This document shows, one piece after another, positions 3,612 through 19,770 of a stretch of DNA of 64,000 nt (positions are counted from its first letter, which is position 1; every line of letters begins with the position of its first letter). The stretch spans positions 264,360 to 328,359 of the forward strand of contig JAUIJE010000003.1 in NCBI GenBank assembly GCA_030431455.1. Direction: 5' to 3'. The notes beneath the pieces are model-generated. The model was not told where the DNA came from, made no database searches, and saw only the letters and a program-made list of their open reading frames with translations. This DNA comes from a bacterium. Its GTDB lineage: Bacteria > Myxococcota > UBA727 > JAUIJE01. A program made the translations under genes and the position numbers.

Positions 3612-4538
3612 TCAGTTGGCGGTCATCTTGGCCACTTCCTCGGCCAGGTTGTCCTGCTTCTTTTCGATGCCTTCACCGACCTTGAAGCGGACGAAGCCAC
3701 CGATGCTGATGTCGGTGCCCACTTCTTTGCCCACGTTCTCGACGAGGTTCTTCACCTTCACGTCGGGGTCTTTGATGAACGCTTGGTCGGCGAGGCAGCT
3801 CTCGGCGATGAACTTGTTCACCTTGCCCACCACCATCTTCTCGATGATGTTGTCCGGCTTGCCTTGCTCTTTGGCTTGGGCGACGAAGATCTCTTTTTCG
3901 TTCTGCACCACGTTGGGGTCCAGGTCGTCGCGGGTGATCGCCAACGGGGCCTCGCTGGCCACGTGCATCGCGATGTCCCGGGCAAGATTCTGCACGTTGT
4001 CGTCGCTGGCCTTGCCCTTGTCGGACAGGTTGAGCTTGACCAACACGCCGATCTTGCCGCCGCTGTGCAGGTAGGCGCCGTAGGCGTCACCATCGTCGTA
4101 CCGCTCGAAGCGGCGCACGCTGATCTTCTCGCCGATGGTCGAGATCTTCTCGGTCACCAACGCTTCCACCGACTGGCCGTCGTTCTTCAAGAACGGCTGG
4201 CCCATGAGGTCGTCCATCTTCGCGGGGGCCTTTTTGGCCACGTGCTCGGCGAGGTCGCCCACCAGTCCCTGGAAGTCGTCGTTCTTGGCCACGAAGTCGG
4301 TCTCGCAGTTCACTTCACACAGAGCAGCGACATTGCCCTCGATGAAGGTGCCCACCAGACCTTCGGCGGCCACCCGGCCCGCCTTCTTGGCCGCGGCCGC
4401 GAGGCCTTTTTCCCGCAAGAACTTGATCGCCGCATCGACGTCACCGTTGTTCTCGGTCAGGGCCTTTTTGCAGTCCATCATGCCGGCGCCGGTCTTGTCC
4501 CGAAGTTCTTTCACCATGGCAGCGGTAATCGCCATCAC
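3612..4538 (-). CDS. tsf: Translation elongation factor Ts
   Basis: MAITAAMVKELRDKTGAGMMDCKKAL... is the canonical EF-Ts N-terminal UBA-like region and the 308-aa length fits. The gene lies directly downstream of rpsB, as in the conserved rpsB-tsf operon. Confidence 0.95.
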   Translation of the reverse strand: MMAITAAMVKELRDKTGAGMMDCKKALTENNGDVDAAIKFLREKGLAAAAKKAGRVAAEGLVGTFIEGNVAALCEVNCETDFVAKNDDFQGLVGDLAEHVAKKAPAKMDDLMGQPFLKNDGQSVEALVTEKISTIGEKISVRRFERYDDGDAYGAYLHSGGKIGVLVKLNLSDKGKASDDNVQNLARDIAMHVASEAPLAITRDDLDPNVVQNEKEIFVAQAKEQGKPDNIIEKMVVGKVNKFIAESCLADQAFIKDPDVKVKNLVENVGKEVGTDISIGGFVRFKVGEGIEKKQDNLAEEVAKMTAN

Positions 4539-4647
4539 GCTCTCCTTTTGTCGCGACCGAGGCCGCGCGAACTCAAAAATGAATGTGCATCAAAAACAAA
4601 CCCCCCAAATGAATGGAGGGTCGTCGAAAAAATCGCGGCCAACCCTC

Positions 4648-5541
4648 TTAGGCCGAGACCTCCGCGGGACCCGAATCCGAGTCCGGGGTCACGTCGTTGG
4701 CGGCGCTGGCTTCGCCGCTGGCCTCGCCGTTGCCGGCGCTGGGGTTGTCTTTGGTGGCGCGGATGACGTCGACCTGCGGGCCTTTGCCTTCGCCGCCTTT
4801 GCGCTCTTTGGGGCCCTTGCTCTCGGCCTTGTCGCCTTGGGCGGCGAGGTTGGCTTGGCGGCGCTGGCCACCTTCGATGCAGGCGTTGGCCATCTTGCTC
4901 GCGAACAGACGAATGCTGCGGATGGCGTCGTCGTTGGCGGGGATGACGAAATCAACCCCGTCGGGGTTGCAGTTGGTGTCGACCACCGCGCAGATCGGAA
5001 TGCCCAAGCGGCGGGCTTCTTCGATCGCGATGTGCTCTTTGCGGGGGTCGATGACGAAGACCATCGAGGGCAGGCGATTCATGTCGCGGATGCCGGCGAG
5101 GTTCTTCTCGAGCTTTTCGAGCTCGCGGGTGAGCTTGACCACCTCTTTTTTGGGCAGGCGGTCGAAGGTGCCATCGGTCTTCATCTTTTCGATGGAGCGC
5201 AGACGGTCCACCGACTGCTTGATGGTCTTGAAGTTGGTGAGCATGCCGCCGAGCCAGCGGTTGTTCACGTAGAACTGGCCCCCGCGGTTGGCCTCTTCGG
5301 CGATCACATCTTGGGCTTGCTTCTTGGTGCCGATGAACAGGACTTTGCCGCCCTTCGCCACCGTGTCGGCCATCGCTTTGTACGCGCGCTCGAACAGGCC
5401 GACCGTTTGTTGGAGGTCGATGATGTAAATTCCATTGCGGGCGCCGAAGATGTACTGCTTCATCTTCGGGTTCCAACGACGGGTCTGGTGCCCAAAGTGA
5501 GCCCCCGCCTCCAACATTTCTCGCATCCCGATGTGGGCCAT
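4648..5541 (-). CDS. rpsB: 30S ribosomal protein S2 with an extended acidic/Gly-rich C-terminal tail
   Basis: [46 protein letters not shown]... is the canonical S2 N-terminus. The start at 5541 is chosen at MAHIGM rather than the upstream in-frame extension of the track ORF, and the C-terminal ~70 aa are a low-complexity tail. Confidence 0.93.
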
Positions 5542-5856: not shown

Positions 5857-6903
5857 TTGCGGCTGATCAACACCTTGAACCGCACTGTTGCCGAGTGTAC
5901 CCCCCGTCCTGTGAGCGCCTTGCCTCTGCTCGTCCTGTGCACCGGCCTCGCCGCGTCCGCCGCCCCCCAGCCGGGGGCGACCAAGGGCCGGCTCCCGGTG
6001 GCCGCGACATTTGCCGCCGGCACCGAGTCGGTGGTGGTGCAGCTGCACGTCGACCTCCGCGGCGCCGGGCTCACCCCCGCCGAGCAGGTCGCGGTGGCGC
6101 GGACCCTGCGGCACGCTCACCACCGCACCCGCCCGATCTTCCCCACCCCGCCGCGCGCCGAGCTCGCCGACCAACTGCTCAGCCTGCACCTCGAGGCGCC
6201 GCCCGCTGAGCTGCAAAACACGCTCAAGGCCCTCAACGCCCTGCTCGCGTTCCGGCTCCGGCTCGACCCCGCGCCGGCGAGCGTGGCCCTCGACCGCGGC
6301 CCAGCGCTGGAGGGGGCGGTCCCGGCGGACCTGCGCGAGCTGACCGCGCGGGTCCTGACCCAAGACCGGGTGATGGTGTTCGTGCAGGGCCCGCTGCCGG
6401 CCGCGCGCGCCCTGGCCCTCGCCTACCGGGCCTTGCCCACCCGATTGCCCCCCGGCGCGCCCCCCGCCCCGGCCGCGAGCGGCCCCCACGTGCCCCTGGC
6501 CGCGGGGCCGGATCGGGTCCGCACCATCGCCGCGGCCTGGCTCGCCGCGGAGATGCTCGGGGCCCGCGCCCAGCTCGGGCCCGCGCGCATCGACCTCACC
6601 GCGCCCGCCGCCTTCGCCGGCCAAGCCCCGGCCGCGCGGGACACCGTCCTGCTGGCGCGGGCCAAGACCCTGGCCCAAGGACCGCCCGCCCCCGATGCCT
6701 TGTTCGAGACCGTGGCCCGGGCGCAGAACCGCCTGGCCCGGCGGTGGCAAGACCCGGTGGCCCTGGGCCGCGACATCGCCCGGGCGCAATGGCGGGCACA
6801 GGACGTCACGCTGTTCACAGTTGTCGACGACCTCTGGCCGCGGCTGTCCCCCGAGGACGTGCGCCGCGGGGCCGAGCTCATCCAAGCGGGGGCCGCGCCA
6901 TGA
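5857..6903 (+). CDS. Hypothetical secreted protein, possibly an M16 (pitrilysin)-like non-catalytic domain protein
   Basis: 348-aa ORF with a signal-like N-terminus (LPLLVLCTGLAASAAP). No HxxEH motif, but there is a DRVMVFVQGPLPAARALALAYRAL segment resembling the conserved element of inactive M16 domains. Its stop overlaps the next start (ATGA). Confidence 0.4.
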   Translation: MRLINTLNRTVAECTPRPVSALPLLVLCTGLAASAAPQPGATKGRLPVAATFAAGTESVVVQLHVDLRGAGLTPAEQVAVARTLRHAHHRTRPIFPTPPRAELADQLLSLHLEAPPAELQNTLKALNALLAFRLRLDPAPASVALDRGPALEGAVPADLRELTARVLTQDRVMVFVQGPLPAARALALAYRALPTRLPPGAPPAPAASGPHVPLAAGPDRVRTIAAAWLAAEMLGARAQLGPARIDLTAPAAFAGQAPAARDTVLLARAKTLAQGPPAPDALFETVARAQNRLARRWQDPVALGRDIARAQWRAQDVTLFTVVDDLWPRLSPEDVRRGAELIQAGAAP

Positions 6904-7922
6904 TCACGTTGGGCCTCGTGCTCGCCCTCGCCAGCGCGCCCCACGCCCCGCGCGACGACGTGCCCCTCGCGACCTGCGCGGTGGCGGTGCCCCGGGGGGA
7001 CATCCCGGTGGGGGACGTGCTGCTCGCGGCCAGCCTCGCCGCGGTGCCGCGCACGCTGACCCAAAAAGCCTTCGTGCGCCGCGGGGGCCGGCTGTGGACC
7101 GCCCCCCGGCCGGATGGGTTTGTCGTCGTGGCCCAGGCCCACGCCCGGTTCACCGAGGACGCGTGTCAGGCCGCGCTCGACGGGGTCGCGCCCGCGGTGG
7201 ATGCAGCGGCATTGGAGCAGGCCCAGGCCGGCTTCCTGGCCCACAAGCGCGACCCCGGGCTGCGGCACAAGGCCGACGTCGCCCGCCGGGTGTTCGGGCC
7301 GGGGCAAAGCTGGGCCGGTCTGTACGCCGACGACGTGGCCGCCCACCGCGTCTCTGCAGAGACATTGGGCAAGCGGTTGTCCGGCCGCGGCCCCCTCGCG
7401 GTGTTCGTCGAGGGGCCGCGCGACGTGAGCTCCACCGTGCGCCAAGGCCTCGCCCCCCCCGACCCCGGGCCGGTGACCTGGCTGCGGCCCGCGCCCCAGC
7501 CCGCGCCCCCCGAGACGGTGCAGGGGGTGGCCTTGCTGTTGCCCCCCGAGGTCGCCGTCGACCGGGACGCGTTCACGTTGTTGGCCCGGGCGTACGAGGC
7601 CGCGCTCGGCGGGGTGGCCGACATCGAGCGCCACCGGGGGGCGGCGGTGCTCGCCGTCGCCCTGGACGCGCCGCGCCCGCGGGCCGAGGTGCTGACCGCC
7701 CTGGCCGAGACCGAGCGGGGGCTCTTGTCGCGGTCGGTGACCCGGCCGTTGTTCGCGGCCGCGGCGGTGCCGCTCGACCCCGTGTACGTGCCCGGGGACC
7801 AAGCGGTGCGGGCGGCGGCGGTTGCCTTGCGCGGCGGCGACGAGGCGGCCCCGATGCGGGGCGCGGAGCGCCTGCTGTGGACACGGGCGTTGTTGTTCGC
7901 CGAAGCGCTCTATTGGTGGTGA
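6900..7922 (+). CDS. Hypothetical protein, M16-like non-catalytic partner, translationally coupled to the upstream gene
   Basis: The start ATG overlaps the upstream stop (ATGA at 6900-6903). The 340-aa protein has a hydrophobic N-terminus and a GPLAVFVEGPRDV segment analogous to the upstream gene, in the paired arrangement typical of M16 subunit pairs. Confidence 0.4.
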   Translation: MITLGLVLALASAPHAPRDDVPLATCAVAVPRGDIPVGDVLLAASLAAVPRTLTQKAFVRRGGRLWTAPRPDGFVVVAQAHARFTEDACQAALDGVAPAVDAAALEQAQAGFLAHKRDPGLRHKADVARRVFGPGQSWAGLYADDVAAHRVSAETLGKRLSGRGPLAVFVEGPRDVSSTVRQGLAPPDPGPVTWLRPAPQPAPPETVQGVALLLPPEVAVDRDAFTLLARAYEAALGGVADIERHRGAAVLAVALDAPRPRAEVLTALAETERGLLSRSVTRPLFAAAAVPLDPVYVPGDQAVRAAAVALRGGDEAAPMRGAERLLWTRALLFAEALYWW

Positions 7923-8059
7923 CCCCGCCGGTGCACACCAAAGGGTGTGCGCGCCGGCGGCGCGGCGGTGTCGCAACCGTGTGAGACGCGCGGACGGGGC
8001 GCACCGAGAAGCGCGGGCGCGGGCTGGAACGGCGGATGCATTGAGCTGACCCAGGAAGG

Positions 8060-8767
8060 GTGGTTCCGATGCTCAGTCTCATTGTGCACTTGGCGGTGGT
8101 GGTCCCCACCGCGAACGGCGCGGCTTTGCCGCCGGAGCGGCGCGCGACGGTGGAGCGCGACCGCAGGGACAGAACCGACGTCGACGACGAGGACGCGCCT
8201 TGGTTCGACCAGGTGCCCACCGCGGTCTGGGCCGGGAGCCTGACCGCGGGGGTGGCCTTCGGGTTGGGCGCGACCCCCACGGTGGGCCTGGCGGTGGCGG
8301 GCGTGTGCGCGGCGGCCGGGCTTTTGGGCTCGGGCTGGCTCGGGTCGAACAAACAGACCGGCCCCACGCTGATGCTCGGCTTCGCCGGGGTCGGCCTCGT
8401 CGCCGCGCTCGGCCCGTGGGTGGGTTTGATCGCCGCGCTCACCACCGCCACGGTGGTGACCCAAAACCCGTGGGTGCTGGCCGCGACCATGGGCGCGGGG
8501 GGCGCCGCGTTGATCCTGGGCGGCGCCGCCGGCTTGGTCGCGAGCTTGCCCCTGTCGCTGTACGTCGCCGCGTACACCTCGCCGTTCGCGCAACGCGCCC
8601 TCGGCACCGACCCGCTGCTGTGGCTGTGGCCGGTCCTGATCGTGCCCCCGGTGGTGATGATGACCTCGACGCTGGCTGCGGCGATGACCGGGGCGGCGGG
8701 GGCCACCGCGGGGGCCACGGTCAGCACCTTGCTGGCCGTCGACCTCGAGCTCGGGGGGCGCGAATGA
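8060..8767 (+). CDS. Gly/Ala-rich multi-pass membrane protein (glycine-zipper-like), paralog 1 of 3
   Basis: About 235 aa; a charged N-terminal segment (RRATVERDRRDRTDVDDEDAPWF) is followed by repeated GxxxG/AxxxA-rich hydrophobic helices. The start may be the ATG at 8069, and the stop overlaps the next start (ATGA at 8764-8767). Confidence 0.5.
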   Translation: MVPMLSLIVHLAVVVPTANGAALPPERRATVERDRRDRTDVDDEDAPWFDQVPTAVWAGSLTAGVAFGLGATPTVGLAVAGVCAAAGLLGSGWLGSNKQTGPTLMLGFAGVGLVAALGPWVGLIAALTTATVVTQNPWVLAATMGAGGAALILGGAAGLVASLPLSLYVAAYTSPFAQRALGTDPLLWLWPVLIVPPVVMMTSTLAAAMTGAAGATAGATVSTLLAVDLELGGRE

Positions 8768-9462
8768 ATGCGAGCGTGGGCTTGGTGTTGATTTTGGCCT
8801 GTGGCGCCCCCGCCTCGACGACGCCCGCCACCGATGCGGTGGTGGGTGACCCCGCCGAGCAGACCCCGCCGGCCCCGGCCCCGCCCCCCCTCGACCCCGG
8901 TCCACCGGGCTGGGTGACCGGGGCCGGCGTCGGTACAGTGGCATTGTTTGCGGGGGTGTGGCCGACGATGGGCATGGCCGCTCTCGGCACCGCGGTGGCG
9001 TGGGGCAGCGTGGCGGTGATCGGCATGCCGGAATCCGCCGCCCGGGATGTGTTGGGGACGGCGTCGATGCCCGCGCTGGTGGTGTGTGCGGTGGCCGGCG
9101 CGGCCCTCCCCATTGCTGCAGGGGCATTGGCCACGGTCGCGGCCTGGGGGTTCGGCGGCAACGGCTGGGCCCCCCTCGGGGCTGCGGCGGGCGCGCTGCT
9201 GTTCGGCGCGGGGGGCTTGGTGGTGGGGGCGGCGTTGGGGGTGCCGGTGGCGATCGCCGGGTCCCTCGTCGGGCTCTTGAGCCTGCTGCAGCTCGGGCTC
9301 ATCGAGGACAGCCCGGGCCTGGGGTTTTTGCCGTTGATCGCGGTGCCGCCGGGCATGGCGATGAGCGCCACCGTCGGGGTCGCGCTCGGGGTGGCGGCCG
9401 GCGCCGCCCTCGGGGGTGGGTTGGCCGCGGAAGTGGCGGCCTGGGGCGCGCGGGCGGAGTGA
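8764..9462 (+). CDS. Gly/Ala-rich membrane lipoprotein (glycine-zipper-like), paralog 2 of 3
   Basis: MNASVGLVLILACGAP has a lipobox (LILAC), then a Pro-rich stretch and Gly/Ala-rich transmembrane helices similar to the flanking genes. Confidence 0.5.
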   Translation: MNASVGLVLILACGAPASTTPATDAVVGDPAEQTPPAPAPPPLDPGPPGWVTGAGVGTVALFAGVWPTMGMAALGTAVAWGSVAVIGMPESAARDVLGTASMPALVVCAVAGAALPIAAGALATVAAWGFGGNGWAPLGAAAGALLFGAGGLVVGAALGVPVAIAGSLVGLLSLLQLGLIEDSPGLGFLPLIAVPPGMAMSATVGVALGVAAGAALGGGLAAEVAAWGARAE

Positions 9463-9489
9463 CGCGCGGACGCGACACGAGGTGAGACG

Positions 9490-10203
9490 ATGATGTGGGC
9501 GTTGTGGATGGCGGGGTGGCTGGGCAGCCAGGGGGCGCCGGAACAGGGGGCACCCCCGGGCGGGCAGGTCCATGATCCCGTCGAGGCCCCCGACGACGAG
9601 GCCGCCGCGGCCGGCCCCCGGGTCGGGCCCGCGACGCTGGCCACGGCGGTGGGGTTGGTGGCGATCGGCACCGGCCCGGTCACCGTCGGCGGGCTGATCG
9701 GGTGTGGCGCGCTGTCGACCCTCGCCTACGACCCGGCCAACGACCTGCGCTTGCCCGCCGCGCAAAAGGTGCCTTTGATCATCGCCGCGGCCTGGCTTCC
9801 GGTGCCCGCCGGCGCCGCCGCGCTCGCCACGGTGCCCGTCGCCGCGGCGCTGTCTGTGGTCGCGGCCTGGTTGATCGCCGACGACGGCGCGGTGGCGCTC
9901 GCGACCGGGATCGGCGCCGCCGTGGCCGGCCCCACCGGCTTTGGGTTGGGCCTTTTGGGCGCGACCCTGCTCGCGATTCCGCTCGCGCTGGTCAGCAGCT
10001 CTCTGGTGCCCGATCCGCTCGGCCTCCGCGGGGGTCCGGTCGGCCCCGACGACGCCATCGGCCCCTTGCTGGGGGTGGCCGCGACCCTCGGGGCCGCCTT
10101 TGGCGTCGTCGTCGGCGCCGCCGCGGGCGGCGCGGTGGGCATCGCGCTGTTCGGCGGGCCCGCCGGCGCGCCGCCCGCTTCTGGCGCGCGCTCCCGCGAA
10201 TAG
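9490..10203 (+). CDS. Gly/Ala-rich multi-pass membrane protein (glycine-zipper-like), paralog 3 of 3
   Basis: 237-aa ORF in the same orientation with similar Gly/Ala-rich helices (GLIGCGALSTLAYDP, GIGAAVAGPTGFGLGLLGATLLAIPLALV). The competing minus-strand ORF 7573..10218 is Arg/Gly-rich junk. Confidence 0.5.
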   Translation: MMWALWMAGWLGSQGAPEQGAPPGGQVHDPVEAPDDEAAAAGPRVGPATLATAVGLVAIGTGPVTVGGLIGCGALSTLAYDPANDLRLPAAQKVPLIIAAAWLPVPAGAAALATVPVAAALSVVAAWLIADDGAVALATGIGAAVAGPTGFGLGLLGATLLAIPLALVSSSLVPDPLGLRGGPVGPDDAIGPLLGVAATLGAAFGVVVGAAAGGAVGIALFGGPAGAPPASGARSRE

Positions 10204-10263: not shown

Positions 10264-11658
10264 GTGAGCATGAAGTCGGCGCTTGGCGTGGCCGTGGCGT
10301 TGTGGGTGTTTTCCCTGGGCTGCCCGGGCCCGGGCCCGGGCCCGGGAAAAGACGCCGGGCCCCCTGCCCCCGACGCCGGCCCCGACGGCGGCGTGGACCA
10401 GCCCGACGCCGGCGCAGACGCGGGGCCGGTGGCGCTGTGGCCGCTGTCCGGCATCGACGCGGACCTACCCGACGACGACCTCGCCCCCCTCGCCGGCCTG
10501 CTCGCGGGCAAAGACGTGATCGGCATCGGCGAAAGCGTACACACCACCGGCGGCGAGCTGCGCATGCGGGCCCGGCTGATTCGATTCCTCGTCGAGTCTC
10601 ACGGGGTGCGCGCCATCGCCCTCGAGAACGAATGGGAAAACACCGAACGGGTCATCGTCCCCTACGTCGAGACCTGTGCGGGCACCCCCGAGGACGCGGC
10701 CCGGGGCATGAACCCCATCTGGTGGGACGTGTCCACCCCCGACTTGATGCAATGGCTTTGTGAGTACAACCAGGCCCACCCCGCAGACCCGGTGCGCGTG
10801 ATGGGGGTCGACATCCGGCAAGCCTGGTACGACCTGCCCGCGCTCACCATGTACCTGCAACAGGCCGCGCCGGGGGTGGCCGATGCCCTCGCCGACGGCC
10901 TCGCCACCTGCCTGGGCGCGGGCTACGCCGATGCCGGCGCATTCTTCGCCGACCCGGCGGTGCAAGGCCACTTCGCGGGCACGCCCACCCCCGAGGCCGA
11001 ACACGAGGCCTGCCTCGACGGGGCCGACGCCGCCTCGGCCTACTTTGAGGCTGAACGCGACGCGCTCATCGCCGCGAGCAGCGAACGAGAGTACGAACGC
11101 GCCCGCCTGCGGGTGGTGGGCATGCGCGCCTTCGACCTGTCCATCTACCACTTGAGCCGGGGTTCGCTCGAGGAGGCCAACCCGCCGCGCGACGCGGCCA
11201 TGGCCGACGTGTTCACCACCTTTCGGCGGCTCGACTTTCCCGGCGCGCGCACCATTGTGTTCGCCCACAACGGGCACATCCTGCATCATTCCGACGAGGT
11301 CCTCGCCGGCCAATGGGTGGGGGTCAAGAACCTCGGCACCCTCGTGCACGAACAGCTCGGCCCCGCCTACGCCGCGGTGGGCCAGCTCAGCCGCACCACC
11401 CACATCAACTGGACCCAGGGCCCGCAGACCCTCGAACACTTCGCGTCCGATGACCTGGAGTTCGTCATCGGCACCCGGGGGCTTGGCTATGCCCTGTTGG
11501 ACCCGGCGGCCGCGGTCGCGCTGGACCCGCCGCTGTGGTCGCCGGACACCGGCTACGACGTGGGGTTCGACACCTTGGTGCCCGACCGCCACTACGACGC
11601 GCTGGTGTTTCACCTGGTGTCGCCGGCCAACGACTACTTCGCGACCCCGGCCCCCTAG
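10264..11658 (+). CDS. Erythromycin esterase (EreA/EreB) family lipoprotein
   Basis: Signal with lipobox (VFSLGCPG) and a Pro/Gly/Asp-rich linker, then VIGIGESVHTTGGELRMRARLIRFLVE and FAHNGHILH motifs typical of the erythromycin esterase family (PF05139). Confidence 0.7.
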   Translation: MSMKSALGVAVALWVFSLGCPGPGPGPGKDAGPPAPDAGPDGGVDQPDAGADAGPVALWPLSGIDADLPDDDLAPLAGLLAGKDVIGIGESVHTTGGELRMRARLIRFLVESHGVRAIALENEWENTERVIVPYVETCAGTPEDAARGMNPIWWDVSTPDLMQWLCEYNQAHPADPVRVMGVDIRQAWYDLPALTMYLQQAAPGVADALADGLATCLGAGYADAGAFFADPAVQGHFAGTPTPEAEHEACLDGADAASAYFEAERDALIAASSEREYERARLRVVGMRAFDLSIYHLSRGSLEEANPPRDAAMADVFTTFRRLDFPGARTIVFAHNGHILHHSDEVLAGQWVGVKNLGTLVHEQLGPAYAAVGQLSRTTHINWTQGPQTLEHFASDDLEFVIGTRGLGYALLDPAAAVALDPPLWSPDTGYDVGFDTLVPDRHYDALVFHLVSPANDYFATPAP

Positions 11659-14948: not shown

Positions 14949-16418
14949 TCAGTCCCCGTCGGCCACCGCGAAGAACGCCGCCACCCGCGCGTCTTCCCCC
15001 CGCGGGGAGAGCGCCCACGCGAGCCCCAGATTGGGCAACAGGCCGTAGAGCCCGGCGTGGACCGGGACCGGCCGCAGATCCGGCCACAGGGTGAACAACA
15101 ACATCACCGCCGTGCCCACCACCAAGCCGCTGAGCACCCCCCGGGCGGTGAGCCGGCGCACGCACAGGCCCAAGACCACCGCGGGGAAAAACTGCACCAC
15201 CGCGCCGTAGGTCGCGAGCAACAACGTCACCAATGAACCTTGGTAGAGGACCGCGAACGCGTAGCCCGCGGCCATGACCGCCACCACCAGGATGCGAATG
15301 GCCCGCCGCTCGGCATCGGCGGAGAGGGTTCGGCCCCCGGCGGTGATGTAGCCATCCCGCACCGCGATGGACGCGGCCGCGTGCACCATCGCGTCCCCGG
15401 ACGACATCGACGCCGCCAATGCCCCTGCACAGAAAAGCCCCACCACCACGCTGGGCAGGTCCATGTGCATCAGCATATGCGGTAAGATCTGGTCCGGCTG
15501 GTCGGGCGCGGGGGTGAAGAACACCCCACAAAACCCAATGAAGAACAGCGGCACCAAAAAGATCTGGAACGTGGGGTAGAGCACCACCGTCCGGCGCAAT
15601 GTGTCTTCACTCTTCGCGGAGAAACTCTTCATGAACAGGTGGGGCCACAAGCAGAAGCCGAGGATCGACACCGTCACCGCCGAGCCGTAGGCCAAAAAGC
15701 TCCAGGGCTCCCCCGACGAGGACAGGCCGGGCGCGCTCAGCAGCTCGGGCCGCTCGGCCGCGATCTTGGCGAACATCGGCCCCACCCCGCCGTAGAGCTT
15801 GGTGGGCAAATAGAGCCCAAGCCCCCAGGCCAGAACCATCATGAACACGCCCTGCAAGGTGTTGGTCCAGCCCACCCCGAGCACGCCGCTCTTGAGCACG
15901 TACACGAGCACCACCGCATAGGTGAGCAGCGCGCCCGCCCACTCCGGCAGCGCCCCTTCGGTGAGCGCCTCGAGCACGTAGCCCGCGCCCTTCATCTGCA
16001 GCGCGAGGTAGGGCACGAACGCGGCCACGCTCACCACCGCCATCACCCCCGCCAGCCGCACATCGCCGAACCGGCTTGCCACCATTTCCGCCTGGGTCAC
16101 GAACCCGTATCGCCGACCAAGCCGGGCCGCCCGCGGGCCGAGGAAATAGAGCGGCACCATGCCCAGCGCGCCGTAGCCGAGGATGTAAAAGGCCGCCGCG
16201 CCTTTTTTGTATGCCCACCCCGGCCCCCCGAGGAAGGCGAAGGCGGAAAACACCGTGGCCCCGGTGATGAAGTACATCACCACCAGACCCAGCCCCCGGT
16301 CGCCGGCGACGAAGCCCGCGGCCGAGTCGGTGCTCTTTTTGCTCGGCCACATCCCCACAATGAGACTGATCGCGAGGTAGCCAAGGCTCACCGCCAGGAT
16401 CACCGCCCCCCGGGTCAT
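14949..16418 (-). CDS. Sodium:solute symporter (SSF) family transporter
   Basis: About 490 aa with multiple transmembrane segments and SSF-type sequence (MTRGAVILAVSLGYLAISLIVGMWPSKKSTDSAAGFVAGDRGLGLV...). The start overlaps the stop of the upstream small membrane-protein gene (ATGA). Confidence 0.85.
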   Translation of the reverse strand: MTRGAVILAVSLGYLAISLIVGMWPSKKSTDSAAGFVAGDRGLGLVVMYFITGATVFSAFAFLGGPGWAYKKGAAAFYILGYGALGMVPLYFLGPRAARLGRRYGFVTQAEMVASRFGDVRLAGVMAVVSVAAFVPYLALQMKGAGYVLEALTEGALPEWAGALLTYAVVLVYVLKSGVLGVGWTNTLQGVFMMVLAWGLGLYLPTKLYGGVGPMFAKIAAERPELLSAPGLSSSGEPWSFLAYGSAVTVSILGFCLWPHLFMKSFSAKSEDTLRRTVVLYPTFQIFLVPLFFIGFCGVFFTPAPDQPDQILPHMLMHMDLPSVVVGLFCAGALAASMSSGDAMVHAAASIAVRDGYITAGGRTLSADAERRAIRILVVAVMAAGYAFAVLYQGSLVTLLLATYGAVVQFFPAVVLGLCVRRLTARGVLSGLVVGTAVMLLFTLWPDLRPVPVHAGLYGLLPNLGLAWALSPRGEDARVAAFFAVADGD

Positions 16419-16698: not shown

Positions 16699-17892
16699 AT
16701 GCTGCTCGTGACCCTGCTCCTCGCCGGACAGACCCTCAACCTCGGGGCCGACGCCATGCGCACCGGCCAGGACCGCTACCTCGGGGCCGAGCTCGGGGTG
16801 GAAAGCGGCTCGCCCGTCACCGTGCCCGCGGCCACCCGCACCCACGGCATCGTGCGCCTGCGCTACATCGAACGCGCCCTCATCCCCGGGCCCGGCGGCA
16901 TCGACCTCGACCTCAACACCGACACAGCCACATTGTCGTATTTCCACCCCGGCTTGTTCGGGGAGCGGTCCTGGTCACAGACCTATCTCCGGGCCCAGGG
17001 CTTCGCCGCCAACCTCCTCACCGACCACGCCCGGGCCGGGGTCCAGGTCCCGGGCCGGGGGTTCGGCGCCGGCTACCTCCTCGGGGGCACCCACCTCGGG
17101 GCCACCCTGGTCCGCACCGACCTCGCCCGGGTGTATGTCGCGGGCCAGCTCGAGGCCCGGCAGTGGTTTCACTTCGCCATGCCCACCACCAGCCCCGGCC
17201 TCGTGCTCCCCCCCGCCAACCAGGCGCTGGAGCCCACCCTGTTCGCCACCGTCGACGGCGTCGATTGGCAAACCCCCCTGCGCCGTCCCCACGGGGTCCG
17301 CACCTGGGCCCAGGTGGGCGGCATCGCCCGCCTCGGCGCGCGCAACTGGGGACAGCTGAACGGCAACGACGACAAGCGCAATCACATTGGGCCGTGGGGG
17401 GCCCGGGCGGAGGCGGGCATCCAGGGGGGCGCGGTGGCCCCGCAGTTTGTGTTCGTGCGGCCGGTGGTGGAGGTCGGCCTGCGCGGCGGCCTGAGCCAGG
17501 GGCTCGACGACCGCGATCGCTTTCGGGTCGGGGGCGACAACCCCTGGGTGATCCCCCTCGCGGGGGCGGGGTGGGCAGAGTTCCTCGTCGACGACTACGC
17601 GTGGGGCCAAGCCTGCGCGGGCCTGCTGGTGTTTGATCGGGTGGGGCTCGACCTCGGGGGCGAGGTGGCGATGATCAACGACCCCTACCGGCGGGGAGAC
17701 CTGACCGACGTGCGGACATTCTCGGGCGCGTTTTTCCGGGTGGTGGCCCGCCCCATCGACGCGGTGGTGGTCACGTTGCGGGTGGCCCAAAGCCTGTCGC
17801 TGCCGCGCACCGGCGTCGATCCCTATGGGCTGGCCGGGACCAAGGGCTACCTCAACCTGGAGTGGAGAGCGTTGCCCTGGCCCTGGTGGTGA
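16699..17892 (+). CDS. Hypothetical secreted protein, possibly an outer-membrane beta-barrel
   Basis: 397 aa with a signal-like start (MLLVTLLLAGQTLNLGADA), alternating amphipathic beta-like segments and an aromatic C-terminus (LEWRALPWPWW). Composition is normal, unlike the antisense ORF 16975..20307. Confidence 0.5.
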   Translation: MLLVTLLLAGQTLNLGADAMRTGQDRYLGAELGVESGSPVTVPAATRTHGIVRLRYIERALIPGPGGIDLDLNTDTATLSYFHPGLFGERSWSQTYLRAQGFAANLLTDHARAGVQVPGRGFGAGYLLGGTHLGATLVRTDLARVYVAGQLEARQWFHFAMPTTSPGLVLPPANQALEPTLFATVDGVDWQTPLRRPHGVRTWAQVGGIARLGARNWGQLNGNDDKRNHIGPWGARAEAGIQGGAVAPQFVFVRPVVEVGLRGGLSQGLDDRDRFRVGGDNPWVIPLAGAGWAEFLVDDYAWGQACAGLLVFDRVGLDLGGEVAMINDPYRRGDLTDVRTFSGAFFRVVARPIDAVVVTLRVAQSLSLPRTGVDPYGLAGTKGYLNLEWRALPWPWW

Positions 17893-17946: not shown

Positions 17947-19770
17947 GTGGCGGTCAAACTGCAACACGTCGACGCGCAGTTCGCGCGGTTGGTCCGGGAG
18001 CGGGTGAAGGCCGCGGCCGGTGAGGACGGCCGGCTCGAGGGGACCGAAGCACGAACACTCGAGGGCGACATCCAAGCGGTGGCCGCCGAGCTGTCGACCG
18101 CGGGCGGCGAGGTCTCCGTCGACGACGTGGTGCAAGGGGTGCTCGACCGCGCCCGCCAGGCCTGGGAGAAGGTCAACGACCGGGGCGCGGCGTTTTTGGC
18201 CCAGCGCGAGATCGGCCAGCTGCCGAAGTTTGGCGGCCTGCACGCGTTGACCCTGCACGCGTACCGGGCGGCCCAAGAGAGCGTGTTTGTCCTCGACAAA
18301 GACCCGGTGTTCCAAAAATACATGTCCGCCGAGCGCTACACCCTCCGGGTCAAAGGCAGCGACGGCAAGGCGAAGGCGCGCGAGGTCCTGTCCATCGACG
18401 GGCCGGGACAGGGCCCCATGCGCGGTGACGTGGCGGTGTTCGCCGCCATCGCGCTCGCCCCCGACGGCCGGCCGCTGTCGGTGCTCAAAGCCGGCGACAC
18501 CCGGGCCGGCCGCGTGGCCCGCGGCGACGACTACGTGAAGGTCGGGTTCATCGCCGGGCGCATGGACAAGGCGGACAAGAGCCCGCTCGAGATCGCGATG
18601 GAAGAGGTCACCGAGGAGGTCGGGGGCACGGTGCTCAGCTGGGGCAAGCTCGGGGACACCCCGGTGCCGACCATGCCTGGCCGGGTGCCCGACGACGACG
18701 ACGGCGCGATGAGCGTGGGCTCGCGGGAGCGCGACCATGTGTTCGGCGCGGTGATCACCGTCGACCCCGACTACGTTCCCCGGGGGGACGGCGGCGGCCA
18801 TGAGGTGGCCGGTCTCATCCAGGCCCACATCAACACCGCGGAAGAGGCGATCGAAGAGATGGCCGCGGGCAAGATGTCCGACGGGGCCCGGGCCTGGAAC
18901 GCCCTGCGCCGCCAACTCGACAAGAGCGGCTACATCCCCGAATTGAGCATGTACGTCCAGGACATGCCCCCGGCCGTGCAGCAACATTTCGATACGCGGG
19001 GGCTCGGCCCCGCCCAGGACCCCCGGGCCCTGTTGGCGAACGCGCCCGCCCCCAAAAAGACCCCGCCCCCGTCCGCCCCCGCGGTGGTCGAGGCGGGCGC
19101 GGCGGAGATCGACGGGGTGCGGGCCGTATCCAGTTCCATTGTCGAGGTGGGGGCCGGGGCCCAAGTGGTCGACGGCACCTTCGAACACCTCGCGGGCCAC
19201 GGCCCCGCGGCCCGGCCGGTGGGCAAGCCCTACCCGTCCCAAGCGCTGGCGGTGCCCTTCGACGCGGCCAAGACCGTGGTGTTCTATCTCGACGCCGCGC
19301 GCGGGCCGATGGTGCGCTTCACCGACGCGGAGCGCGGCAACATGGGGGTGAAGGTGGCCGAGGACGGGGCCGCCGACGCGGCCTACCGCGCCAAAGACGT
19401 GAGCGAGTTCCGGGTGCCGGTGGGCGATGCCCAAGGCGAGGCCGCGCTCTCGGCCCAGGCCCGCCGGGCGGTGACCGCGGGGCTCGACGCCGTGGGCTGG
19501 TCCGGGGCGGCGGTCAAGACCCTGGGGGCGTCCACCGACGCGTCCGCGGGACAGACCGACATGCGGTTTCATTTTTTCAGCGCCGAAGTCGCGCCCCCGC
19601 CGGGGGGCGAGGGGTTTGTCCCGCTGACCGACGCGTTGACCCAGATTCGGGCCGCGGGCCAAGGGGACGCGGGGGCCGAAAATGCGCTCCTCCGGCTCGC
19701 CCGGGACCTCGGCTATGTGCCCACCCTGGGCATGTTTGTCGACGACGTGACCGCGCTGCTCACGCCCTGA
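17947..19770 (+). CDS. Hypothetical protein (607 aa), weak Nudix-like segment
   Basis: Non-repetitive ORF with normal codon composition. The central segment GFIAGRMDKADKSPLEIAMEEVTEEVGG loosely resembles a degenerate Nudix box; no confident family assignment. Confidence 0.5.
   Translation: MAVKLQHVDAQFARLVRERVKAAAGEDGRLEGTEARTLEGDIQAVAAELSTAGGEVSVDDVVQGVLDRARQAWEKVNDRGAAFLAQREIGQLPKFGGLHALTLHAYRAAQESVFVLDKDPVFQKYMSAERYTLRVKGSDGKAKAREVLSIDGPGQGPMRGDVAVFAAIALAPDGRPLSVLKAGDTRAGRVARGDDYVKVGFIAGRMDKADKSPLEIAMEEVTEEVGGTVLSWGKLGDTPVPTMPGRVPDDDDGAMSVGSRERDHVFGAVITVDPDYVPRGDGGGHEVAGLIQAHINTAEEAIEEMAAGKMSDGARAWNALRRQLDKSGYIPELSMYVQDMPPAVQQHFDTRGLGPAQDPRALLANAPAPKKTPPPSAPAVVEAGAAEIDGVRAVSSSIVEVGAGAQVVDGTFEHLAGHGPAARPVGKPYPSQALAVPFDAAKTVVFYLDAARGPMVRFTDAERGNMGVKVAEDGAADAAYRAKDVSEFRVPVGDAQGEAALSAQARRAVTAGLDAVGWSGAAVKTLGASTDASAGQTDMRFHFFSAEVAPPPGGEGFVPLTDALTQIRAAGQGDAGAENALLRLARDLGYVPTLGMFVDDVTALLTP

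Follow-up and report, generated by a model that had tools for sequence, protein, structure and literature searches.

Three tandem genes for Gly/Ala-rich hydrophobic proteins, and the gene pair that precedes them, in a Myxococcota contig

Gene content and coding status

The window analysed here is a stretch of 64,000 nucleotides (nt) of the Myxococcota contig JAUIJE010000003.1 (assembly GCA_030431455.1, positions 264,360 to 328,359 of the forward strand), and all coordinates are those of the window. The subject is three consecutive + strand genes, p1, p2 and p3, which encode hydrophobic, Gly/Ala-rich proteins, together with the two genes located 5' of p1, up1 and up2. p1, p2 and p3 were found to be real + strand genes. 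The unit to which they belong is best explained as larger than the trio: a five-gene, same-strand module of up1, up2, p1, p2 and p3. These genes and the long open reading frame (ORF) on the opposite strand are listed below (lengths in amino acids, aa).

5911-6903, + strand: up1, 330 aa, signal-like N-terminus; gene call, codon log-odds +0.39; first gene of the module
6900-7922, + strand: up2, 340 aa, signal-like N-terminus; 58% identical to positions 342-1367 of contig L083 (see next section)
8069-8767 (ATG start, 232 aa) or 8060-8767 (GTG start, 235 aa), + strand: p1, ORF
8764-9462, + strand: p2, ORF, 232 aa
9490-10203, + strand: p3, ORF, 237 aa
7573-10218, - strand: antisense ORF, 881 aa, not a gene

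The stop codon of up1 overlaps the start of up2, and the stop of p1 and the start of p2 share an ATGA overlap at 8764-8767. In the case of p1, the ATG at 8069 was better placed than the GTG at 8060, with GGAAGGG 8 nt 5' of the ATG, and was also the choice of the gene caller. The ATG of p3 was preceded by GAGGTGA at a distance of 5 nt. The three proteins contained 18-24% A, 12-17% G, 12-14% L and 10-12% V. p1 begins with a hydrophobic N-terminal stretch, followed by the highly charged segment ERRATVERDRRDRTDVDDED and four hydrophobic blocks. p2 carries LILAC near its N-terminus and then a Pro-rich linker, and p3, which is Gly/Ala/Pro-rich and hydrophobic, has the Trp-rich start MMWALWMAGW. An earlier description made from the letters alone (the sequence-only reading) had placed three tandem ORFs that belong together on this strand, and they were recovered where it had put them, with the charged segment of p1, the LILAC and Pro-rich stretch of p2, the Trp-rich start of p3 and the ATGA overlap all read as described. 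Its lengths of 235 and 237 aa for the first and third ORFs were also recovered (the former being 232 aa from ATG 8069), whereas the second is 232 aa and not 233.

The G+C content of the window is about 70%, and the stretch 6001-10000 is the richest, with 75-77%. The G+C of third codon positions (GC3) in the + frames was 0.91-0.96 for p1 and 0.87-0.94 for the frame of p2 and p3 (about 0.92 for p3). The GC3 phase switches exactly at the p1/p2 boundary, as genes on the + strand require. Codon-usage log-odds, trained on six neighbouring genes with Pfam domains, were +0.49, +0.37 and +0.41 bits/codon for p1, p2 and p3, respectively, and at most +0.14 in every other frame. Independent gene calls on two identical 11-kb contigs gave the same three genes.

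The 881-aa antisense ORF spans the region and has its third-codon phase in common with p1, so that the + ORFs might be spurious and the true gene might be the antisense ORF or lie in another frame. This explanation is effectively refuted. The GC-rich third position of the antisense ORF is common with the p1 stretch only, its codon usage was worse everywhere, and the phase change at the p1/p2 boundary, the log-odds of all three genes and the independent gene calls agree with the + strand. Protein-level conservation also falls in the + frames: in p2 residues 154-196, 28 of the 43 residues (65%) are identical in the homologue from contig L083, and for 11 of these 28 the codons differ (AGC versus TCC in the case of a Ser, among others). 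This conservation through synonymous change shows that the protein of the + frame is under purifying selection. The antisense ORF is a by-product of high G+C, in agreement with the sequence-only reading, which had dismissed it as non-coding; GC3 and codon usage, either of which might have pointed to another frame, favoured the + frames instead.

The sole relative and the relationship of the three copies

A full HMMER search with p2 against 1.84 billion representative proteins resulted in one true homologue, P0005, a protein of 239 aa with 36% identity over residues 16-221 (E 7.4e-10). A second match, the 632-aa RCC1-like repeat protein P0004 (E 4.7e-10), was made up of nine short stretches and was rejected as a repeat-summation artefact on biased sequence. 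P0005 is encoded on L083, a 2.8-kb contig with a G+C of 0.70, in the order: C-terminal part of up1, up2, one membrane gene and, 8 nt further on, a convergent symporter gene. The partial up1 of L083 was 52% identical to that of the window over the C-terminal 109 aa. The up2 gene was 58% identical (E 1.7e-111) and showed the same up1/up2 overlap, and the convergent gene was 72% identical to the window symporter at 14949-16418. The closest counterpart of the single L083 copy was p2.

The linkage of up1 and up2 to the membrane gene was thus observed in two organisms. As judged from these two sequences, the conserved module is up1, up2 and membrane gene, with a copy number of one in L083 and three in the window. 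The window has additional genes after its first membrane gene and before the symporter: p2, p3, an erythromycin-esterase-family lipoprotein, an M1 peptidase, an ORF of 191-197 aa and an AraC regulator. The segment 8768-14948 of the window corresponds to 2219-2226 of L083, i.e. about 6 kb is extra in the window as an insertion/deletion difference between the lineages. When aligned with L083, the intergenic region before the first membrane gene showed no conserved element; it contained no sigma-70-like promoter, and terminator-like sites were at chance level.

A strain variant from another sample, contig L084, aligns to 7710-8832 of the window with 99.3% identity. Its 8 substitutions in 1123 nt are too few for a selection test. 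The three in up2 were all synonymous, p1 had two synonymous substitutions and F46L, and the two in the signal/tether part of p2 were both non-synonymous (I10F and P21A).

Further searches for relatives were negative. Word-index protein searches with p1, p3 and up2 returned only the queries themselves and the L083 copy, with p3 returning only itself. Nothing was obtained from the metagenome scans with the up2 alignment and with the p2+L083 alignment, or from the genome-collection scan with the esterase query. The rpsB scan of 185,579 species genomes gave 80 loci, none with any module gene. The best rpsB match, from an uncultured Myxococcales bacterium, was only 72% identical, and the host, a deep-branching myxobacterium, therefore belongs to a poorly sampled Myxococcota lineage. 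Four members of the Gly/Ala-rich membrane protein family are known, and the two Myxococcota lineages that carry them are uncultured or poorly sampled. Relatives are present in the samples SRR22103514, SRR33155361 and SRR33155351; a literature search on the sample run accessions gave no paper.

The paralogy claimed for the trio by the sequence-only reading was firm for one pair and borderline for the third copy. In direct pairwise BLASTP with composition adjustment no pair was significant (E 0.21, 13 and 0.68). The Smith-Waterman alignments of p1-p2 and p2-p3 were full-length and collinear, with z values of 2.5-4.2 against local-composition shuffles for p1-p2 and of 2.9-5.8 for p2-p3 (2.9-4.0 against local-composition shuffles). 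The z value of p1-p3 was about 0. The relationship of the first two copies was established through the foreign intermediate P0005, which links both: p1 matched the p2+L083 profile in hhalign with a probability of 94.3% (E 9.9e-8, 176 columns) and P0005 itself in BLASTP with 30% identity over 151 aa (E 1.3e-6). By these sequence comparisons p1 and p2 are homologous.

The case of p3 is weaker. Against the p2+L083 profile, p3 scored 53.5% in hhalign (E 1.3e-4, 177 collinear columns); with the three-sequence profile the score went down to 14.7% (E 1.8e-3, 94 columns). The length of p3 is within 5 residues of those of the other copies, the order of its parts is the same, and it is adjacent on the same strand. 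Local motifs in common are DPVE in the tether and, where helix 2 turns into helix 3, AAW..(N/D)G; all four proteins (p1, p2, p3 and P0005) end in Glu. From its length, position, architecture and weak profile scores, p3 is a probable third, diverged paralogue.

The likeness of p3, and at the extreme of the whole set, could alternatively come from convergent composition only, since high G+C drives Ala/Gly/Pro-rich hydrophobic ORFs; the locus would then hold a duplicated pair and an unrelated neighbour. Such an explanation agrees with the non-significant BLASTP values, with the p1-p3 z value and the lower of the two profile scores of p3, with the lack of a p3 homologue elsewhere, and with the recovery of neither p1 nor p3 in the full HMMER search with p2. 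We consider it rather unlikely, because the p2-p3 alignments are full-length and collinear, the shared length, part order, motifs, terminal Glu and immediate adjacency speak against chance resemblance, and the homology of p1 and p2 stands independently of p3.

The identity between the copies was 24-30%, and that of p2 with the L083 protein was 37%. A recent expansion is unlikely, since the copies are less alike than p2 and its foreign orthologue. The duplication probably dates far back, with loss in the other lineage, or the copies diverged rapidly after it. The tandem duplication proposed by the sequence-only reading accordingly gains from the single copy at the same position in the sole relative, but does not look recent. 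Descent of all copies from one ancestral gene behind the conserved secreted pair would be the best explanation of these comparisons, with p3 as a putative member. No further copies were found in the window by tblastn, and an internal repeat within each protein was unsupported (half-versus-half Smith-Waterman z from -1.0 to 2.0).

Protein anatomy and membrane character

The proteins have a common layout: the N-terminus is short and hydrophobic, and is followed by 30-40 acidic or Pro-rich residues, by four apolar blocks (33-44 residues each) and by a short charged tail. Prolines are invariant inside the blocks (P67, P116, P161, P190 and P195/196 in p2 numbering). Kyte-Doolittle averages in 19-residue windows peaked at 1.4-2.3 in p1-p3. 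The best 19-residue windows had summed apparent insertion energies of 0.8-5, compared with 0.1-4.4 in the helices of the neighbouring sodium:solute symporter (SSF family), and this match makes membrane integration plausible. The p2 model, computed with AlphaFold2 (AF2) from the four-sequence alignment, contained helices at 49-87, 90-131, 135-176 and 196-231, about 40 residues each. The three proteins are therefore very hydrophobic and helical in character and, in accordance with the sequence-only reading, probably membrane-embedded, as hydropathy, insertion energies and predicted helices agree. A Foldseek search with the p2 model matched only designed helical bundles and ABC-transporter helices, all with E >1, and was meaningless.

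Two local features of p2 are listed below.

9271-9351, + strand: best-conserved motif GLLSLLQLGLIEDSPGLGFLPLIAVPP, p2 residues 170-196; invariant columns G170-L191, P195 and P196 in comparison with the L083 protein
8788-8802, + strand: lipobox-like LILAC of p2, residues 9-13 with Cys13; core of a PROSITE-type pattern

The consensus of the best-conserved motif is LLxLLQLGxIxDSPGLGFLPL..PP. In the p2 model it falls largely in the loop 177-195 between helices 3 and 4, which suggests that it may form an exposed functional site. In p1 the motif is present in a weaker form, DPLLWLWPVLIVPP.

The lipobox was tested with a PROSITE PS51257-type pattern, which demands an uncharged h-region and [LIVMFWSTAG]2-[LIVMFYSTAGCQ]-[AGS]-C within the first 35-40 residues. 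The core of the pattern was present in p2, as ASVGLVLILAC ending at Cys13, and no match was detected in p1 and p3. When p2 is aligned with the L083 protein, neither Cys13 nor the Ala before it varies. From this conservation, p2 and its L083 orthologue are probably acylated on the conserved Cys. Two observations weigh against lipidation: the n-region of p2, MNASVGL, has no K/R in its first 7 residues, and the L083 protein fails the strict pattern owing to Arg13. No in-frame alternative start was present in the sequence 5' of ATG 8764.

The sequence-only reading had called the trio a glycine-zipper set rich in GxxxG/AxxxA. The Gly/Ala-rich composition stood, whereas the zipper label was not borne out by family models or, beyond a weak degree, by motif statistics. 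With 2000 shuffles of the hydrophobic core in which composition was kept, the z values for GxxxG were -0.07 (p1), 0.8 (p2), 2.6 (p3) and 1.9 (L083 protein). The corresponding values were -0.7, 1.7, 2.25 and 2.2 for triple motifs of the (G/A/S)xxxGxxxG type, and 2.3, -1.0, 1.3 and 2.75 for small-xxx-small. The GxxxG pattern thus follows mostly from composition, and its spacing is only weakly above expectation. In hmmscan, none of p1-p3 and the L083 protein matched the glycine-zipper models PF13488 (Gly-zipper_Omp), PF13441 (Gly-zipper_YMGG), PF13436 (Gly-zipper_OmpA) and PF05433 (Glycine zipper 2TM/Rick_17kDa_Anti) at E<=1.

These data bear on a comparison with outer-membrane stabilisers of the SlyB/YfgH type. 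In two preprints, SlyB and YfgH are presented as glycine-zipper outer-membrane lipoproteins with a role in envelope stress (bioRxiv 10.64898/2025.12.22.696046; 10.64898/2026.06.08.730324). If the trio were of this type, its glycine-zipper helices would lie in the outer membrane and oligomerise round lipids or outer-membrane proteins under stress, and the copies would be specialised variants. The order of parts in p2 (lipobox-like signal, flexible tether, Gly-rich hydrophobic helices) is the same, p1-p3 are likewise small proteins, probably of the envelope, without an enzymatic domain, the acidic loops almost free of K/R are unusual for inner-membrane loops, and the GxxxG triples of p3 and the L083 protein are mildly enriched (z about 2.2). 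On the other hand, in addition to the missing Pfam matches, the lipobox-like start is confined to p2, two of the three copies being without it; the four long blocks differ from one two-helix hairpin with a periplasmic domain, and p1-p3 have no folded periplasmic domain; GxxxG is not enriched in p1 and only weakly so in p2; and hydrophobicity like that of ordinary inner-membrane helices means that Sec would probably integrate the proteins into the inner membrane. Taken together, we regard membership of this class as unlikely.

The upstream pair, the neighbourhood and possible function

Function could not be assigned by similarity, as the sequence-only reading had expected. No usable match to Pfam, NCBIfam, PADLOC or PHROGs was obtained for the trio, the L083 homologue or up1/up2, and the PDB sequence-profile searches with the trio family, up2 and up1 gave no acceptable match. 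The NCBIfam matches to 'acetolactate synthase' (E 0.1) and 'SCO5555' (E 0.049) were noise, and a PDB profile match of up2 to ribose-binding protein (E 0.58) was rejected.

Neither up1 nor up2 matched a Pfam (E<=1) or NCBIfam family, and no HxxEH or HExxH motif was present in up1, up2 or the L083 orthologue of up2. In the Foldseek comparison of the AF2 up2 model with the PDB, however low the confidence of that model (predicted local distance difference test score, pLDDT, 45.5), all 50 of the top 50 matches were chains of the M16 family (TTHA1264/1265, bc1 core proteins, MPP and IDE). From this model, up2 may be a degenerate member of the M16 (pitrilysin) fold that lacks the zinc motif; this is a lead and not a classification, and up1/up2 may be a pair of pseudo-peptidases. 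Like paired bacterial M16 proteins and the inert, M16-derived bc1 'core' subunits, up1 and up2 are encoded by adjacent, overlapping genes and are of similar sizes. HxxEH is absent in them as it is in the inert core subunits. They also adjoin membrane-protein genes, and we purely infer that their products associate with membrane proteins. In contrast to typical M16 subunits, they are about 100 residues shorter and have no Pfam M16 match, and up1 is unlike up2, with no detectable mutual similarity.

Immediately 3' of the module lies the erythromycin-esterase-family lipoprotein gene, which is absent from the L083 arrangement:

10264-11658, + strand: erythromycin-esterase-family lipoprotein (PF05139, E 1.7e-32), lipobox VFSLGC

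The protein has a PGPGPGPG tether, and its gene starts 60 nt 3' of p3. A search for terminator-like sites between p3 and the esterase gene gave none. With this spacing and the same strand, the gene may be co-transcribed with the trio. On the other side of the module, the rpsB-tsf pair (3612-5541, - strand) had a G+C of about 0.59-0.62, compared with 0.75-0.78 immediately downstream. In the Pfam-scanned part of the window, 540-30701, genes for predicted secreted hydrolases and for adhesin-like proteins were densely packed. The families comprised an S15 X-Pro dipeptidyl-peptidase, an AstE/AspA-type deacylase, an M1 peptidase with a weak dockerin-like end, an S9/DLH hydrolase, two FG-GAP/ASPIC proteins and a metallophosphoesterase. 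No Pfam match was obtained for several ORFs of 400-600 aa (16699-17892 and 17947-19770). Pfam domains of secretion systems or toxins were not detected in any of the 17 gene products scanned in this part.

The last result is relevant to the possibility that the trio encodes a membrane-active toxin or bacteriocin, in which one copy would be a pore-forming glycine-zipper protein and the diverged copies beside it would confer immunity or represent polymorphic variants. CdzC/CdzD of Caulobacter are an example of glycine-zipper membrane-active toxins. Glycine-zipper motifs have also been reported for membrane-damaging effectors such as a T7SS (type VII secretion system) LXG-T2 effector (PMC12955049). 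The trio has Gly-rich apolar helices, an extremely narrow distribution, fast-diverged copies and a tandem copy number that differs between the two carriers, as would be expected of such toxins. It differs from them in having no delivery domain and another kind of partners: the conserved ones are two secreted proteins of 330-340 aa and not an exporter. Moreover, no LXG/PAAR/Rhs element or ABC exporter was seen among the 17 products, none of the genes annotated in the first 30 kb of the window was recognised as a secretion gene, the nearest neighbours are secreted hydrolases, PADLOC and PHROGs gave no match, and all copies are alike in architecture, which would be unusual for a toxin and its immunity protein. 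A toxin function is considered improbable.

The interpretation that we prefer, at about even odds, is that p1-p3 are polytopic helical membrane proteins of the envelope, with p2 probably lipid-anchored, and that they expanded into, or were kept as, a lineage-specific tandem array tied to two secreted proteins that resemble inactive M16 peptidases. An N-terminal targeting or anchor segment, a tether and four hydrophobic blocks, each with a conserved proline, would most likely make the products polytopic alpha-helical envelope proteins. Acylation of the p2 Cys would place the tether on the periplasmic side. The three diverged copies might assemble into a hetero-oligomeric bundle in the membrane, with their helices packed via small-residue faces; the loop DSPGLGFLPL..PP would serve as an exposed contact site, and up1/up2 would be its likely periplasmic partner.

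Several points weigh against this interpretation. No family, structure or characterised relative was found that supports a function. The confidence of the AF2 models was low, with a pLDDT of 59.5 for p2 and the still lower value for up2, and the M16 matches drawn from the latter were weak (best E 1.5e-3, TM about 0.18). Basic residues are nearly absent (two in total in p2) and the loops are acidic, so the positive-inside rule yields no topology, and the proteins may lie in the inner or in the outer membrane. The p1-p3 z value and the three-sequence profile score of p3 count against a common descent of the whole array, and with only two organisms carrying the module, co-occurrence is weak as evidence of functional linkage.

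Two bolder forms of the interpretation are a long shot. In one, the locus would encode an undescribed envelope complex, in which an up1/up2 clamshell of inactive M16 fold is docked via the DSPGLGFLPL..PP loop onto a lipid-anchored p1-p3 bundle, as a periplasmic analogue of the inert bc1 'core' on its membrane part. In the other, the trio would represent a new class of multi-hairpin alpha-helical outer-membrane lipoproteins. There is so far no evidence of anything mechanistically surprising at the locus.

At present the finding is of minor importance, being one more very small orphan family, of Gly/Ala-rich membrane proteins, among the many envelope proteins of high-G+C bacteria that are uncharacterised. 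It also illustrates that tandem paralogues of biased composition can escape pairwise detection, one intermediate sequence having been needed here. If p2 is a multi-hairpin alpha-helical outer-membrane lipoprotein, the very short list of helical outer-membrane proteins would widen, and if the linkage of up1/up2 reflects a physical complex, it would provide a function for a pair of pseudo-peptidases.

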